From an uncultured Planctomycetales bacterium (GTDB taxonomy: Bacteria > Omnitrophota > Gorgyraeia > Zapsychrales > GWA2-47-8), in the NCBI GenBank assembly GCA_964364715.1, contig CAYING010000003.1, positions 3,764 through 67,763 on the forward strand: a stretch of DNA of 64,000 nucleotides, given 5' to 3'. The translations under genes and the position numbers were made by a program. The notes beneath the pieces are model-generated. The model worked only from the letters and a program-made list of their open reading frames with translations, searched no databases and was not told where the DNA came from. Shown piece after piece: positions 27,640 to 53,343 of this stretch; positions within the stretch are counted from its first letter, which is position 1; every line of letters begins with the position of its first letter.

Positions 27640-27669
27640 ACTTCCTCCCTGCCCCGCCTGTGGCGGGGC

Positions 27670-30600
27670 TCAAACTTTTGATTGCTCTGCCGGCGCGGGG
27701 GCATCATGGGTTTCCGCGGCCATCGCTTGATAGACCGCCCATCGGTCAAATATATCGTCCTGCGCCAGTGCCATCAATTGCTTGGCTCTCTCGGGATGGG
27801 TTTTAGCCAGCATCCGGAAACGGTTCTGCCGGTCGGCATATTCTTTGAACGGGATCTTCGGCGACTCTGAATCCAGGATCAGCGGATTCTTTCCTTGCTG
27901 GGCAAGCTCAGGGTTATAGCGGAACAACGGCCAATATCCGCTTAAGACAGCCGCTTTATGGTCCTGAAGGGCTTGCGTCATATTGATCCCGTGGGCGATG
28001 CAGTGAGAATAGGCGATGATCAGGGATGTGCCCTCGTAACGTTCAGCCTCGAGAAAGACTTTTAAAGTGTGTTCATCCTTGGCCCCGAAGGCGACCGCGG
28101 CCACATAAACATTCCCGTAGGTCATGGCAATGCGCGCCAGGTCTTTTTTAGGAGATGATTTTCCCGATGAAGCAAATTTGGCCACCGCGGAACGGGGAGT
28201 GGCCTTCGATGATTGCCCGCCGGTGTTGGAATAGACTTCCGTGTCCAAAACCAAAATATTGACATTGCGCCCGGCCGCCATCACATGGTCAAGCCCGCCG
28301 AAGCCGATGTCATACGCCCACCCGTCGCCGCCGATGATCCATACGCTCTTTTTAACCAATGTGTCGGCGAGGCTCATAAGCTGCGCGGCTTCGGGAGATC
28401 TTATTTTTCTGATCTTTTCTTTAAGGATCTCGACGCGCTTACGCTGTTCAAAAATATCCGCCTCATCTTTTTGCGGTGATCCCAGGATCGCCTGGATCAA
28501 TTCCGTGCCGATGTGCGATTCCATACCTTTAAGCAACTCTCCCGCGAATTGCTGCTGTTTATCCAAAGCAAGACGGAAGCCAAAACCGAATTCGGCATTG
28601 TCCTCAAACAAAGAATTCGACCAGGACGGCCCCCGCCCTTCTTTATTTTTTGTCCATGGGGTCGTGGGTAAATTCCCGCCGTAAATGGACGAGCATCCGG
28701 TCGCGTTGGCGATCATGGCCCGGTCACCGAAGAGCTGGCTCATTAATTTCAGATAAGGCGTCTCCCCGCAGCCGGAACACGCGCCGGAGAATTCAAATAA
28801 AGGCTCTAAGACCTGGACGCCGCGGACCGAATTCTGTTTGACCTGCGAACGGTCCATTTCCGGAAGATTTAAAAAGAAATCCCAATTTTGTTTTTCCGCT
28901 TCTTTTAACGGCGGCTGGGGATTCATGTTGAGAGCTTTTAATCTTGTTTCGGATTTATTCTTGACCGGACAAACCTCGACGCACAAACTGCATCCGGTAC
29001 AATCTTCCGGCGCCGCCTGGATCGTATAGGCCTTCCCCTGAAATTCACGGTCACGGGCGGCAACAGTTTTAAAAGTCTTCGGCGCCTCCGCGGCCAAGCC
29101 GGTTTCATAAACTTTAGAGCGGATAACCGAATGCGGGCAGACAAAAACACACTTTCCGCATTGGATGCATATGCTCTCATCCCAGACCGGGATCTCCAGA
29201 GTGATATTGCGTTTTTCATATTTTGCCGTCCCGACCGGATAAGTCCCATCCGCCGGCAAAACGCTCGTCGGGATCTGATCACCGCAGCCGACCATAATCC
29301 GGGCGGTCAATTTCTTGACGAATTCCGGCGCGGACGGTGATACCGCCGCCGGCTTCTCAATTGTGCTCGTGGCCTTTTGCGGGACTTCGATCTTATGCAG
29401 ATGAGCCAAGGCGTGATCGACCGCGTCATAATTCATCCGCACGATCTCCTCGCCTTTTTTGCTGTATGTTTTTTCGATATATTTCTTAATGGCATTGATC
29501 GCTTCTTCCTTAGGAAGGATCCCGGAGATGGCAAAGAAACATGTCTGCATAATGGTATTGATCCGTCCGGCCATACCGGATTCATACGCCACTTTATATC
29601 CGTCAATAACATAAAATCGGCATTTCTTGTCGATGATCTGCTGCTGGACATCGCGCGGAAGTTTATCCCAGGTCTTATCCGCTGCGATAGGGCTGTTGAG
29701 CAAAAATACCCCGCCTTCATCCAGCTTCTCGAGGACATCGTATTTTTCCAGGAATCCAAAAGCATGGCATCCCACAAAGTTAGCCCGGCTCACCAGATAA
29801 GAAGAATGGATCTGTTTAGGCCCAAAACGTAAATGCGAAACCGTGATCGACCCGGATTTCTTTGAATCATAAACAAAATACCCTTGCGTGAAATAATCGG
29901 TATTCTCGCCGATGATCTTGATGGTGCTTCTATTGGCGCTGACCGTTCCATCCGAGCCGAGCCCGTAAAAAATAGCCCTGACTCCCGTCGGGCTTTCGAT
30001 CGTAAAATCCTCATCATAGTCAAGGCTGGTCTGGGACAGGTCATCATTAATACCAACGGTAAAATGATTCTTCGGCTGCTTCTTGGCCGTCTCATCATAA
30101 ACCGCCTTGATCATCGCCGGCGTAAATTCCTTGGACGATAAGCCGTACCGCCCGCCGATGACAACCGGCAATTTCTTGAATTTACCGCTGCCGGCCTCAT
30201 AGAGCGCGCCGATCACGTCGAGATAAAGCGGTTCACCGACGCCGCCCGGTTCTTTCGTGCGGTCCAGGACAGCTAACACCTCTACGCTGGAAGGCAACTC
30301 CTGGATAAAATCCTTAATCGAAAATGGACGGAAAAGCCTGATCTTCAACAAACCCACCTTCTCGCCTTTAGCGGTCAATTTGTCGACGGTATCCTGCGCC
30401 GCCTCCGCGCCCGAACCCATGATCACAATGACCCGTTGAGCATCCTGCGGCCCATAATAATCAAATAATTTATATTTCCTCCCGGTCAATTGAAAAAATT
30501 TGTCCATCGACTTCTGGATGATCCCTGGGCAAACGGCATAATACGGATTGACCGTTTCGCGGGATTGAAAATAAACATCGGGATTTTGCGCGGTCCCGCG

Positions 30601-49457: not shown

Positions 49458-49700
49458 TTAAAAACGCCGACGAGCATTATTTTGATTTGCCTCATTGCCG
49501 TTGCCTTTCAGCCGGCGGATGTACGACGCAAGCACCGTGCTGATCTCGGTCTGTCCGACGCCGAGCTCTTTAGCCGAGCCGATCAGTTCAGTGCACTCTT
49601 CGTAACGCTCCGCTGCCAAGGCCTCCTGCAGATACAAGAGGGCCGTGACTTGAAGCGCGTTTTCCGCCGTCTGATTGTTTTGCACCATTACATTACGCAT
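49458..49700 (-). CDS. Small hypothetical protein (about 80 aa)
   Basis: ATG preceded by AGGAGG at 8-nt spacing. No known motif. Confidence 0.45.
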   Translation of the reverse strand: MRNVMVQNNQTAENALQVTALLYLQEALAAERYEECTELIGSAKELGVGQTEISTVLASYIRRLKGNGNEANQNNARRRF

Positions 49701-49770
49701 TTTTTTCACCTCCTTTCAATGAGCGCTTGACTTACGGAAGCTTTAGCGACGTAAGTCAATTGCGCGAATT

Positions 49771-49845
49771 GACCCCGCCGGCTTCGCAGAGGCGGGGGAA
49801 TTGATCCCGCCTCTTGCGAAGCGGCGGGATGTTTTCCGGCAGTAA
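49771..49845. repeat. GC-rich double-hairpin repeat, copy 2
   Basis: gaccccgccggcttcgcagaggcgggggaattgatcccgcctcttgcgaagcggcggga. Compare 41553..41620. Confidence 0.7.
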
Positions 49846-49908
49846 TTTACGTTTCCGCCTGATGCGGATCCGCCTCAGGCGGACATTGCATTCCGTAAAT
49901 TACGCCGT

Positions 49909-50131
49909 CAAACAAAAACCCCCGCTCCTTGTTTCGCAAGAAGCGGGGGTTTCAAAATTCAGAATCTGTTCTGTTTATTTACCTAACGAATCCGGAAACA
50001 CCCCTTCCCGCGCGCTTTCTCCAAACCGGGAAAAGCATAATGGTGCAGGTCGCGCAGTGTTTATGATTCGTTAATTTTTGCATTTGATCTTCCCTGCCCC
50101 GCCACAGGCGGGGCTTAATGTTCTTAACAGC
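49909..50131 (-). ncRNA. Candidate small RNA or micropeptide transcript, bounded by a consensus promoter and an intrinsic terminator
   Basis: Promoter TTGACA-17-TATATT at 50138..50166 (minus strand). Terminator cccccgcttcttgcgaaacaaggagcgggggtttttgttt at about 49909..49950. Internal nested hairpins. Optional 34-codon ORF at 49979..50083 (MQKLTNHKHCATCTIMLFPVWRKRAGRGVSGFVR). Confidence 0.4.
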
Positions 50132-50137
50132 GTTTAA

Positions 50138-50166
50138 AATATACCACGGTCGACCAACCCTGTCAA
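50138..50166 (-). promoter_or_regulatory. Near-consensus sigma70 promoter (TTGACA-N17-TATATT), divergent from the amidase promoter
   Basis: Plus strand: aatata(50138-50143) + 17 nt + tgtcaa(50161-50166). Confidence 0.55.
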
Positions 50167-50170
50167 CGGC

Positions 50171-50216
50171 TGAAATTGAACGTGAAATTGAACGTGAAAT
50201 TGAACAGTGAACAGTG
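50171..50216. repeat. Tandem direct repeats (3 x TGAAATTGAACG plus GTGAACAGTGAACAGTG) between two divergent promoters
   Basis: tgaaattgaacg tgaaattgaacg tgaaattgaaca gtgaacagtg. Confidence 0.8.
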
Positions 50217-50234
50217 CCCGCGGCCGGCATTTTA

Positions 50235-50252: not shown

Positions 50253-50978
50253 ATGGCCAAGGCAAACAAGTTCATCCCATTCTTAATTTTTCTCGCCCTG
50301 ACGGCAGCCTCATGCTCGACGGTCCCGAAAAAACCGGTCACGGCCCCTGTCCCGCCCCCCGGGCGCTCCACCGTTAAACATGTCGTCGGCCCCGGAGAAA
50401 CGCTGTGGCGCATCAGTAAAATTTACGACGTTCCCGCCGCGGCGATCCTGCAGGCGAATAGTTTAAAAAGCCGAAACCTCGCAATGGGAAGCACGCTCCG
50501 GATCCCGAAGGCCAAGGACGCCGAACAGCCGATCACTCTTTATCCGTCGAGAAAATGGAAATACATCATCATCCACCACAGCGCGACGAAAAAGGGAAGT
50601 TCGCTTGCGTTCAATAAAGCTCACCAGGCAAAAGGCTGGGACATGGTCGGGTACGATTTCATCATCGACAACGGCAGCGGCGGGAAACCGGACGGTTTTA
50701 TCGAGATCACTCCTCGCTGGCTGAAACAACTCGACGGGGCGCATTGCAAGGCCTCGGACATGAACTCCAAGGCGATCGGGATCTGTTTGGTGGGAGATTT
50801 CAATGAAGACCGGTTATCCTTCGCCCAGCGCAGATCTTTGGACGAACTCGTGAACAAACTGCGCGCCTATTACAAGATCCCGGGGAAGAACATTTTACGC
50901 CACGGTGAAGTCCGCGGCGCCCATACCGACTGCCCGGGTAAAAAATTCCCTTGGGAAAAATTTAAACACGGACTTTGA
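50253..50978 (+). CDS. Lipoprotein with LysM domain and N-acetylmuramoyl-L-alanine amidase (Amidase_2/PGRP) domain
   Basis: Lipobox LTAASC. LysM (HVVGPGETLWRISKIYDV). Amidase_2 motifs (IIHHSAT, GYDFIID, HTDCPG). The only convincing plus-strand gene. Confidence 0.85.
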   Translation: MAKANKFIPFLIFLALTAASCSTVPKKPVTAPVPPPGRSTVKHVVGPGETLWRISKIYDVPAAAILQANSLKSRNLAMGSTLRIPKAKDAEQPITLYPSRKWKYIIIHHSATKKGSSLAFNKAHQAKGWDMVGYDFIIDNGSGGKPDGFIEITPRWLKQLDGAHCKASDMNSKAIGICLVGDFNEDRLSFAQRRSLDELVNKLRAYYKIPGKNILRHGEVRGAHTDCPGKKFPWEKFKHGL

Positions 50979-52350: not shown

Positions 52351-53343
52351 TTATCCCCCGATCTGATACATCGGCTGCTCAATATGATCAATCCGGCTTA
52401 ATGGTTTCATTTTCAAAACGGTTTTTAGAATTCCCCGATATTCTTCCCGCGGCACACCGCGCAAATTTACCCCGGCCTCAGACATAATACAGGCTCTTAA
52501 CTTGCCCGTTGCCGTCAGCCGCAGGCGGGAACAGAAAGAACAAAAGGCTTGCGATTCTGAGGCAATGAATCCAACTTTCGCGCCTGCCGGAGTCGTGAAA
52601 TTAAAAGAGGTGGAATCCCGATTGACCGACTGCGGTAATAATGTTTCGGATTCTTCGATCTTTTTTATAATCTCCCGGGCCGGCATAAAATTAAGGCTGT
52701 GATTTTGATGGGAACAGCCTATTTTCATTAACTCCAAGAATCGGACTTCAATAGCGTGATCGGCGGAAAATTTAACAAAATCCATGATCTCGTCATCATT
52801 GACCCCGCGCATCACCACAGTATTGACCTTTACCTTAAACCCTTGCGCCTTTGTTTGAAGAACGGCTTCATAAACTTTTTGAAAATATTTTGTCTTTGTA
52901 ATCTCATGGAATCGCCCGGCTCGCAGGCTGTCTAAGCTTATATTAATATGCTGACAGCGTGTTTGCTTTAAAAATTCAAGTTTCTCTACCAATAAAAAAC
53001 CATTCGTCGTTAGTCCTATCTTTCTTAACGGCAGCCTGGAAAGTCCTTCGACAATCGATTCAAAGTCTTTTCTTAAAGTAGGCTCTCCGCCTGAAATTCT
53101 TATCTCATCGATCCCGAAATCAGCCAAGGCGGAGCATATTTCCAGCAACTCACCGGAGGAAAGAAGCGCTGAGGAGGGTAAAAATTCAGGCGTCAAAGGC
53201 ATGCAATAAAAACAGCGGAAATTGCAGGCATCGGTTAGTTGAACCCGCAACTTATGAATTTGCCGGCCATGAGCGTCGGCTAAAATTGACTTCGATTCCA
53301 TCTTTTCCTTTCCGATCACGGGAAGCCGCATTGTTTCCAACAC
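52351..53343 (-). CDS. moaA: GTP 3',8-cyclase MoaA (radical SAM, molybdenum cofactor biosynthesis)
   Basis: Radical SAM motif CNFRCFYC. C-terminal second cluster CSFCSRLRLTATGKLRAC. The true start may be the internal Met at about 53301. Confidence 0.9.
   Translation of the reverse strand: MLETMRLPVIGKEKMESKSILADAHGRQIHKLRVQLTDACNFRCFYCMPLTPEFLPSSALLSSGELLEICSALADFGIDEIRISGGEPTLRKDFESIVEGLSRLPLRKIGLTTNGFLLVEKLEFLKQTRCQHINISLDSLRAGRFHEITKTKYFQKVYEAVLQTKAQGFKVKVNTVVMRGVNDDEIMDFVKFSADHAIEVRFLELMKIGCSHQNHSLNFMPAREIIKKIEESETLLPQSVNRDSTSFNFTTPAGAKVGFIASESQAFCSFCSRLRLTATGKLRACIMSEAGVNLRGVPREEYRGILKTVLKMKPLSRIDHIEQPMYQIGG

Follow-up and report, generated by a model that had tools for sequence, protein, structure and literature searches.

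A conserved leader of a small-protein gene family in Omnitrophota is a candidate ribosome-mediated transcription attenuator

In the classical amino acid attenuators (trp, his, leu, thr, ilv and pheA), a short open reading frame (ORF) lies early in the transcript and the RNA can fold into hairpins 1:2, 2:3 and 3:4, the last of which is the terminator. A terminating ribosome covers region 2, and termination is the default both without translation and with unhindered translation. Dar and colleagues, in Science in 2016, reportedly used Term-seq to find antibiotic-responsive leaders of upstream ORF (uORF) and terminator in front of resistance genes. In mycobacteria, polycysteine leaderless short ORFs at the 5' end of the transcript are described as ribosome-pausing sensors for downstream genes (Canestrari et al., bioRxiv 10.1101/834739). 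Here we analyse a 64,000-nucleotide (nt) stretch of an Omnitrophota genome (contig CAYING010000003.1; hereafter the window, whose numbering is used throughout), which carries on its minus strand, upstream of p80, a gene for a protein of 80 amino acids (aa), a leader composed of a promoter, a uORF, a long hairpin and an intrinsic terminator. Sequence comparison establishes the conservation of this leader, the covariation of its helices, its predicted alternative pairings and its linkage to p80. We think it fairly probable that the region is the 5' leader of p80 and a ribosome-mediated (leader-peptide) transcription attenuator; the mechanism would be of a well-known kind and the family new, having no Rfam model and never having been annotated.

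A leader conserved upstream of p80-family genes

The leader sits in a 543-nt spacer between a LysM-amidase gene (50253-50978, plus strand) and p80 (49700-49458, minus strand). Read along the minus strand, the spacer holds in order tandem repeats, a promoter, a GC hairpin, GGGAAG and an ATG, a 34-codon ORF, a terminator, about 190 nt of hairpins and a Shine-Dalgarno sequence, followed by p80. Folding of a 225-nt stretch of it beats all of 200 shuffled versions (z = -5.6). The first-pass annotation of this DNA had read the region as an orphan unit coding for a small RNA (sRNA) or a micropeptide. The promoter, the terminator and the ORF of that description all stand; the orphan status probably does not, since the leader precedes a p80-family gene in nine of ten distinct contexts.

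A word-indexed protein search gave seven p80 homologs with 73-100% identity, among them three informative loci (L087, L084 and L086), and the leaders 5' of p80 in these loci and in the window (the window clade) show 73-87% DNA identity. Five p80-family members with 41-54% identity to p80 were then fetched on long contigs (L160, L161, L163, L165 and L168), and each has a homologous leader upstream. In the nine contexts the leader lies directly upstream of the p80-family gene and on the same strand; the other neighbours differ, with amidase, fatty-acid desaturase, deaminase, YggT/MscS and YchF genes flanking the various loci. Upstream of the leader, the window and L087 have the amidase gene in divergent orientation, L084 and L086 a fatty-acid desaturase gene that is co-directional, and the leader, p80 and an LpxL-like gene stay together throughout the window clade. 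The gap from terminator to p80 is only 35-57 nt in L161, L164 and L168.

R1, a covariance model derived solely from the window clade, recovered all six distant copies at full length, with 45-83 bits and E values of 6e-9 to 4e-18, and nothing credible in 80 other Omnitrophota loci (about 600 kb). Synteny with the amidase is not conserved, because 80 GTDB Omnitrophota loci anchored on that gene contain no homolog of the spacer or leader, of the uORF or of p80. The relatives of the window amidase are all Omnitrophota metagenome-assembled genomes, and Hainich groundwater contigs hold exact copies of window genes. Rfam 15 returned no family at gathering threshold on the region or in eight related loci. 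Matches below threshold on the region (E <= 10) include the His, Phe, PyrR and PyrG leaders, NsiR1 and others, with 16-24 bits against thresholds of 39-65 (49-65 bits for the His, Phe, PyrR and PyrG families), and the alignments shown for PyrG_leader, PyrR and His_leader rest mainly on the terminator. A scan for tRNA and tmRNA found none.

The promoter (50166-50138, minus strand) consists of TTGACA, a 17-nt spacer and TATATT, with 11/12 matches and a TG extension of the -10 element (TGgTATATT), and its predicted start lies near 50131. The consensus promoter put forward in the first-pass annotation is conserved: both hexamers (-35 and extended -10) are invariant in L084, L086 and L087 while the 17-nt spacer varies, the layout TTGACA-17-TGnTAnnnT recurs in L160, L161, L163 and L168, and L165 has TGcTATATT. 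This is the sole strong promoter-like site 5' of p80 on the p80 strand (10-11/12 matches plus TG), and no other promoter-like site was found between terminator and p80 in the window, L084, L086, L087, L160 or L161.

The uORF (50083-49979, minus strand) has 34 codons plus a stop and reads MQKLTNHKHCATCTIMLFPVWRKRAGRGVSGFVR. The GGGAAG of the first-pass annotation stands 5 nt 5' of the ATG, as a GGA-type Shine-Dalgarno-like element at 50094-50089, and the ORF proves to be a genuine feature, kept in all nine distinct leaders at a length of 29-35 codons. In alignment A2 of the window clade it is kept at 34, 33 and 30 codons, and the five distant leaders encode MNQSTNQKHVTCLIMLFPAWRKPAREGVF, MNQITNQKHTAVSCIMLFPAWRKYARGGVFLVR, MNQSMNRTHISCLPVAKAGAMLFPAWRKCSRGGVF, MKTLMTQNMHAVCIKLFPVWRKPAERGVF and MNKLMNHKMHSCPITLFAVVARRKWAREGAF.

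The AUG is invariant in the nine leaders, followed by 6 nt that are unpaired and variable, and stands four codons ahead of the conserved A(C/T)GAAT in the first helix of the long hairpin (P1), L160 (ATGACT) being the exception. In five distant lineages (four scanned for promoters, and L165) it is found 9-10 nt 3' of the -10 hexamer, which implies a 5' untranslated region (UTR) of 0-3 nt, i.e., a leaderless message; these uORFs are therefore probably translated as leaderless messages. The window clade has a predicted 5' UTR of 26 nt (48 nt in the window itself) with the GGA-type element, which is no weaker than the signal of many genes of this genome, where GGA precedes 22 of 42 genes and GGAG only 9. 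A short ORF with a seemingly usable start signal would thus stand at the start of the transcript, as in an attenuator.

Further evidence for translation comes from the pattern of change. The distances between conserved anchors are 47, 44 and 62 nt for one interval and 34 and 40 nt for another, every indel being a multiple of 3, for which the chance is ∼0.04 if at least three independent events are assumed. Pairwise pN/pS of the uORF is 0.11-0.52 in the window clade, and in the first 29 codons the number of variable columns is 3, 4 and 8 for the first, second and third codon position, respectively. The stop codon directly follows GV(F/S) in five leaders and abuts or overlaps region 2 (see below) in six of nine. 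The peptide consensus is M-N/Q-x-x-T/M-N-x-K-H...C...LFPxWRK...GV-F, with a C terminus that varies in length and sequence. The window peptide has two His and two Cys, and one Cys is invariant family-wide. A CxxC motif that had been noted in the peptide is not conserved, the first Cys being C, Y, Y or S in four close relatives.

None of the nine peptides is present as a called protein among about 15 billion, and a scan of JGI metagenomes with uORF peptide patterns found no relatives. A scan with the back-translated motif F..WRKRAGRG gave 69 matches, all of them in unrelated reading contexts and none with the remaining peptide, and was discarded as a route to further leaders. The degenerate DNA pattern recurs in mostly marine contigs (including TARA) as ...SAGWIWVFGFVVWRKRAGRGALKLLKR in open frames of widely differing length (L091, L098, L103, L104, L109, L111-L113, L115, L119, L126-L129 and L138). 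An abundant conserved gene, read on its opposite strand or in an alternative frame, is the probable source, and the pattern is unrelated to the leader.

Alternative pairings and the position of the ribosome

A long imperfect hairpin (49983-50074, minus strand), made up of helices P1-P4, encloses uORF codons 4-33 and would serve as the anti-antiterminator (regions 1:2) of the model. Its predicted ΔG is -33 to -49 kcal/mol across the nine leaders and about -34 in the four window-clade sequences. The stems of the window clade differ by six substitutions, all of which keep pairing through wobble, and 99.2% of cells are paired compared to 39-55% in slid controls; within this clade alone, no pair is changed on both sides. 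In alignment A13, 95.7% of cells are paired and 20 of 49 pairs are changed on both sides, against 8.6 ± 1.6 in shuffled controls (0 of 500 as high) and 1-5 in slid controls, and the covariation score is 0.320 versus 0.165. Helices P1, P2 and P3 and the terminator all covary in A13; the lower part of P4 (GCUUUUU/AGAAAG, coding for L-F and R-K) is invariant.

The intrinsic terminator (regions 3:4; 49953-49910, minus strand) has a 17-bp stem, GAAACCCCCGCUUCUUG/CAAGGAGCGGGGGUUUU (49953-49915), a CGAAA loop and a U-rich tail, UUUUUGUUU, with a predicted ΔG of -29.2 kcal/mol. A simple terminator scan overlooks it, assigning part of the U run to the stem. Nearly invariant in the window clade, it has a different sequence in the distant leaders (AAAGCCACCGACUCUU...GGUGGCUUUUUUU), with eight terminator pairs changed on both sides. 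All nine leaders place a GC-rich terminator stem and a run of 5-7 U between the uORF and the presumed regulated gene, as is expected of an attenuator. The terminator had been recognized in the first-pass annotation, and the short terminated transcript that it entails would indeed be the default product.

Region 2 (GCGCGGGAAGGGGUGUUUCC; 49994-50013, minus strand) covers codons 24-30 in the 3' arm of the ORF hairpin, its GGGG lying in GGGGUGUUUC, and is complementary to the terminator 5' arm and loop, GAAACCCCCGCUUCUUGCG, for which it is the alternative partner. The predicted ΔG of the window 2:3 duplex is -25.1 kcal/mol, a value that 15 of 2000 dinucleotide shuffles match, as do 16 of 1977 random window segments. 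In all nine leaders, the terminator 5' arm finds its best upstream partner in the 3' arm of the ORF hairpin (codons ∼23-36), where the duplex has a ΔG of -12.6 to -25.4 kcal/mol and is equalled by 0-27 of 500 shuffles.

Since the register of region 2 shifts by 2 columns between clades in A13, the antiterminator was tested by per-sequence duplex energies and by a cross-clade energy matrix. The terminator arm is clade specific (CCCCCGCUUCUU versus CCACCGACUCUU) and region 2 changes along with it (GGGAAGGGG versus AGGGGAGGUG); the change from CCCC to CACC in region 3 is matched by a change from GGGG to GGUG in region 2 and region 4 alike. With either type of terminator arm, the leader of the same clade pairs 6-7 kcal/mol better than the leader of the other clade.

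We simulated the ribosome by masking a footprint of -12 to +14 nt around the P site and folding the nascent RNA to its minimum free energy (MFE), a purely thermodynamic model. In this simulation, the antiterminator forms in the nine leaders with the P site at codons ∼1-16 (in the window run, from ∼1 to 15-19) and in none of the nine once the P site has reached the final third of the uORF. With no ribosome masked, it forms in one of the nine leaders (L160). According to the model, the 1:2, 2:3 and 3:4 pairings would be mutually exclusive and the ORF would be placed so as to respond to a stall, both of which are hallmarks of an attenuator.

Proposed mechanism and rival explanations

In the mechanism that we propose, a strong sigma-70-type promoter would start a transcript whose first feature is a uORF of 29-35 codons. 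If no ribosome were present, the 1:2 hairpin and then the terminator would form, and transcription would stop after about 200-220 nt. A ribosome keeping pace to the stop codon would cover region 2, or the hairpin would re-form behind it, and the terminator would again form. A loaded ribosome slowed within the first ∼15-19 codons would instead cover region 1 and leave region 2 free to capture the emerging region 3, so that no terminator would form and RNA polymerase would read into p80. Termination would therefore be the default, with read-through only when a loaded ribosome lags in the first half of the uORF. Candidates for the cue that slows the ribosome are general translation stress, a particular aminoacyl-tRNA and a nascent-peptide effect. 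As a variant of its class, the leader would be marked by a uORF that seems leaderless and is buried in the anti-antiterminator hairpin, by the lack of a regulatory codon run and by a small-protein target.

Several points weigh against this mechanism. The comparison comprises nine distinct leaders in total, and A13 was fitted to the structure of the model. The antiterminator is weak in L168 (-12.6 kcal/mol, equalled by 24 of 500 shuffles) and in L161 (-15.0 kcal/mol, 27 of 500), and the ribosome-free nascent MFE gives the antiterminator in a longer window transcript as well as in L160. At equilibrium the terminator wins in every case, and the model therefore depends on folding kinetics. RNA structure confounds the coding evidence: the invariant residues of the peptide are all in stems, and coding and structure are inseparable within the window clade because the variable codons are mostly in loops and the stem substitutions all preserve pairing. 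At unpaired positions of that clade, synonymous changes are weakly above expectation (about 5 to 6 by our count), and frame +2 is likewise open for 31-37 codons in several copies. No run of one regulatory codon, such as the classical attenuators use to sense an amino acid, was found in the uORFs. L163 and L168 have weaker, 9/12 promoter-like matches 3' of the terminator or overlapping its start, and one family member, L089, has no leader, p80 there beginning 15 nt after an EamA-like gene. We infer transcription start, termination, uORF translation, folding kinetics, read-through and the response to stalling from the sequence.

The same RNA could be read by something other than a ribosome. In PyrR and ribosomal-protein leaders, binding of a protein stabilizes a hairpin and favors termination, and here a protein, possibly p80 itself, might bind the long hairpin, stabilize 1:2 and so favor termination, with the ORF incidental or an aid to opening the hairpin. 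This autoregulation would fit the conserved basic ...RRF tail in which p80 ends and the confinement of the leader to p80-family genes in the R1 search, as a feedback loop expects, and the near invariance of lower P4 and much of P2, where other helices covary, suggests sequence-specific recognition. However, the invariance of P4 is equally explained by the double constraint of coding for L-F...R-K and pairing, the predicted structure of p80 has no recognizable RNA-binding fold, and the invariant AUG at a fixed position, the in-frame indels and the stop codon on region 2 would all be left unexplained; we consider autoregulation unlikely. A metabolite-sensing riboswitch with the terminator as its expression platform and a coincidental ORF strikes us as very improbable indeed. 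Such a switch would present what is seen here, a structured and conserved leader that can form either terminator or antiterminator and matches no Rfam family, but the fold is one long hairpin interrupted by small internal loops rather than a multihelix junction or a conserved unpaired core, the sequences of the loops and internal loops vary (with a 15-18-nt insertion there in L163), and the invariant initial AUG and the frame-preserving indels point to translation. A 6S RNA was also considered and rejected, as the fold is no rod with a central bubble and its ends are unpaired.

The remaining alternative keeps to the idea of an independent gene, for either a trans-acting sRNA of ∼200-220 nt or a basic micropeptide of 29-35 aa, kept beside p80 by, for example, a joint function. 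A strong conserved promoter and terminator would indeed make a short RNA the main product, the peptide is conserved, and small proteins recur at the locus, L160 and L163 having another small ORF with a good Shine-Dalgarno sequence after the leader; such a gene would also be compatible with the attenuator, as an additional role. On the other hand, the clade-specific complementarity of regions 2 and 3 would be purposeless in a stand-alone gene, it is odd that an ORF meant for efficient translation should lie wholly inside a hairpin of -33 to -49 kcal/mol, the C terminus of the peptide is conserved in neither length nor sequence, and p80 lacks another promoter-like site in six loci and begins close behind the terminator in L161, L164 and L168. 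The linkage to p80, the absence of another promoter for it, the 2:3 complementarity and the switch seen on ribosome masking make the orphan reading not the best fit, and we rate an independent gene as improbable.

Returning to the attenuator, a more far-reaching version would be a phylum-wide, leaderless switch driven by the nascent chain or by translation stress, in which the conserved peptide helps to slow its own ribosome on a specific cue and which controls a ribosome- or stress-related p80 family in the ultra-small, host-dependent Omnitrophota. We offer this version as speculation and regard it as doubtful. Omnitrophota are uncultivated and gene regulation in them is almost unstudied, and the leader is a compact, conserved and previously unannotated regulatory module there; the p80 family appears to be tightly controlled and is therefore probably important.

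Surrounding features and comparison with known systems

Three tandem 12-nt repeats, GTTCAATTTCAC, occupy 50171-50211 (minus strand), immediately 5' of the -35 element and within the spacer to the divergent LysM-amidase gene. They are lineage specific, with three copies in the window and L002, two in L001, three degenerate copies in L087 and about one in L084 and L086, and were not found 5' of the distant leaders. The number of repeats changes between otherwise identical strains, two tandem copies instead of three being the sole difference between the strain variant L001 and the window. They could be a regulator-binding site for the divergent promoters.

A 22-nt insertion (50094-50115, minus strand) with a GCCCCGCC-TGT-GGCGGGGC hairpin (50114-50096) is private to the window lineage, is an alignment gap in the three close relatives and is not part of the conserved element. 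The first-pass annotation had the transcript begin with this hairpin, which actually lies ∼18 nt into the predicted transcript and is missing from all relatives. The same annotation had dismissed an 83-aa ORF (49979-50230) as an artefact, and rightly so: the frame begins 5' of the promoter and is kept open solely by the insertion, relatives without which have an in-frame TAA 7 codons 5' of the ATG that closes it (alignment A2). Recognizing the leader accounts for the 'empty' 543-nt intergenic region and removes this spurious ORF from the annotation.

A near-identical 24-nt copy of the insertion is present at 27647-27670 in the window; the 24-nt element CCCTGCCCCGCC-NNN-GGCGGGGCT at 27647-27670 and at 50092-50115 is identical save for an inverted loop. 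The palindrome CCGCCNNNGGCGG occurs five times in the window (8511, 27654, 32822, 49870 and 50099) compared to 0.14 expected, and another pair of palindromes is inserted in the loop of hairpin H1 (49854-49883). These palindromes behave like small inserted hairpin elements.

H1 belongs to the ∼190 nt 3' of the terminator, which form very stable hairpins (z = -10.2) and are followed by a strong Shine-Dalgarno sequence and p80. It spans 49838-49909 (minus strand), with arms GTAATTTACG/CGTAAATTAC (49842-49851 and 49894-49903), an outer CGGC/GCCG stem and the nested palindromic insertion just mentioned. These are the nested inverted repeats that had been placed inside the ∼220-nt RNA; they lie 3' of the terminator (49842-49903), beyond the unit as it had been delimited. 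Further 5' UTR hairpins (49720-49830, minus strand) comprise two GC-rich 32-nt repeat units (49766-49828) and H4, TTGACTTACG/CGTAAGTCAA (49727-49759), followed by TCATTGAAAGGAGGTG; after H4 come TCATTGAAAG and the p80 Shine-Dalgarno sequence. H1 shows compensatory changes, GTGACTTACG/CGTAAGTCAC in L086 and L087 (two changes versus the window) and GCGACTTACG/CGTAAGTCGC in L163, as does H4, with CAACTTATG/CATAAGTTG in L084 and CAGCTTATG/CATAAGCTG in L163. Both H1 (GYRAYTTACG...CGTAARTYRC) and H4 (..CTTAYG...CRTAAG..) thus covary between the window clade and the distant L163 and are not found in the short-UTR lineages, H1 being absent from L160, L161, L165 and L168. The pattern points to a conserved RNA or DNA structure.

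The presumed regulated gene, p80 (49458-49700, minus strand), encodes 80 aa with three predicted helices and a C-terminal ...RRRF, and is one of a wide Omnitrophota family whose members mostly measure about 60-95 aa. When 1.84 billion cluster representatives were searched with a profile, the search gave 237 family representatives (50%-identity clusters) at E <= 1e-3, and a larger collection gave 180 family proteins at E <= 1e-5, all named merely as Omnitrophota hypothetical proteins. Pfam and NCBIfam have no match for p80, and ten members of the family match no Pfam family. AlphaFold models p80 as a three-helix protein (pLDDT 82); searches of the PDB by fold (Foldseek) and by sequence profile returned no significant match, the hits being generic helical bundles, TPR-like repeats and designed repeat proteins.

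One genome, GCA_040960315.1, has two p80 paralogs, P0179 (L163) and P0252 (L168), both preceded by a leader of their own. Downstream of P0179 is an ABC-F gene (ABC_tran, ABC_tran_Xtn, ABC_tran), upstream of P0252 a YchF GTPase gene, and the gene after a homolog, P0204, encodes a cold-shock protein; the translation-related genes in these positions are suggestive and inconsistent between loci. The extra ORF between leader and p80 homolog in L160 (2376-2468) and L163 (2380-2472) has 30 codons behind a strong Shine-Dalgarno sequence, encodes MAMDVLFVITLVKWMSNQRRLDNSENKEKS and MEMIAISTVVCIEFLWHARKLKNSMKKEKS, respectively, with a hydrophobic N-terminal half, and is lacking in the window clade.

The spacer from p80 to the LpxL-like gene, which in the window has an extra ∼130 nt compared to relatives, contains a 6-codon mini-ORF, MPH(M/V/L)(R/C)T (49305-49285, minus strand), behind a GGAGGAA Shine-Dalgarno sequence, also present in L086, L087 and L088. 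Its stop codon abuts a conserved intrinsic terminator (∼49283-49250), after which comes an invariant TGcTACAAT extended -10 element (49248-49240). These features may represent a second small regulatory unit and the LpxL-like gene's own promoter. Elsewhere, the sole window match at the Rfam gathering threshold is a Moco riboswitch (RF01055; 53289-53441, minus strand; 52.6 bits, gathering score 36). The listed GTG start of a 330-aa ORF (52351-53343) falls within the riboswitch; we take this ORF to be a radical-SAM MoaA-like gene, and its true start probably lies further downstream.

Compared with the classical amino acid attenuators, the leader is alike in its early ORF, its four regions, the placement of the stop codon and its predicted default termination. 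It differs in having no codon run for a single amino acid, in a longer ORF (29-35 codons) that lies almost wholly in the 1:2 hairpin, in a target that is a small protein and no biosynthetic operon and in a uORF that is apparently leaderless in most lineages. The antibiotic-responsive attenuators resemble our model in that the uORF overlaps the anti-antiterminator, a stalled ribosome frees the antiterminator, and a conserved peptide takes the place of a codon run. Their targets differ from p80, which is no recognizable resistance determinant (ABC-F protein, methyltransferase or efflux pump); an ABC-F gene comes after just one p80 paralog (L162/L163), and nothing in this analysis links the leader to an antibiotic.

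Escherichia coli SecM contains PVW...RAGP, and the window peptide, with PVW...RAG, bears a superficial likeness to it. The SecM/RAPP arrest peptides carry a C-terminal motif, RAGP, RAPP, RAPG or RGPP, with an essential proline (PMC10987492). The leader peptides have RAGR in the window and PARE, YARG, CSRG and PAER in relatives, with no proline in place, and lack the length and the signal sequences of such monitoring substrates; the motif falls in region 2, where a stall favors termination, and an arrest peptide of this kind was rejected. RNA-level constraints on region 2 best account for the likeness.

If the start is truly leaderless, the leader would couple leaderless translation to an intrinsic terminator. 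Its closest leaderless precedent is the mycobacterial polycysteine short ORFs, with which it would share a leaderless 5' uORF and, through one invariant codon, the use of cysteine; those ORFs have poly-Cys tracts and act on translation, whereas the leader has a single Cys codon and would control an intrinsic terminator.

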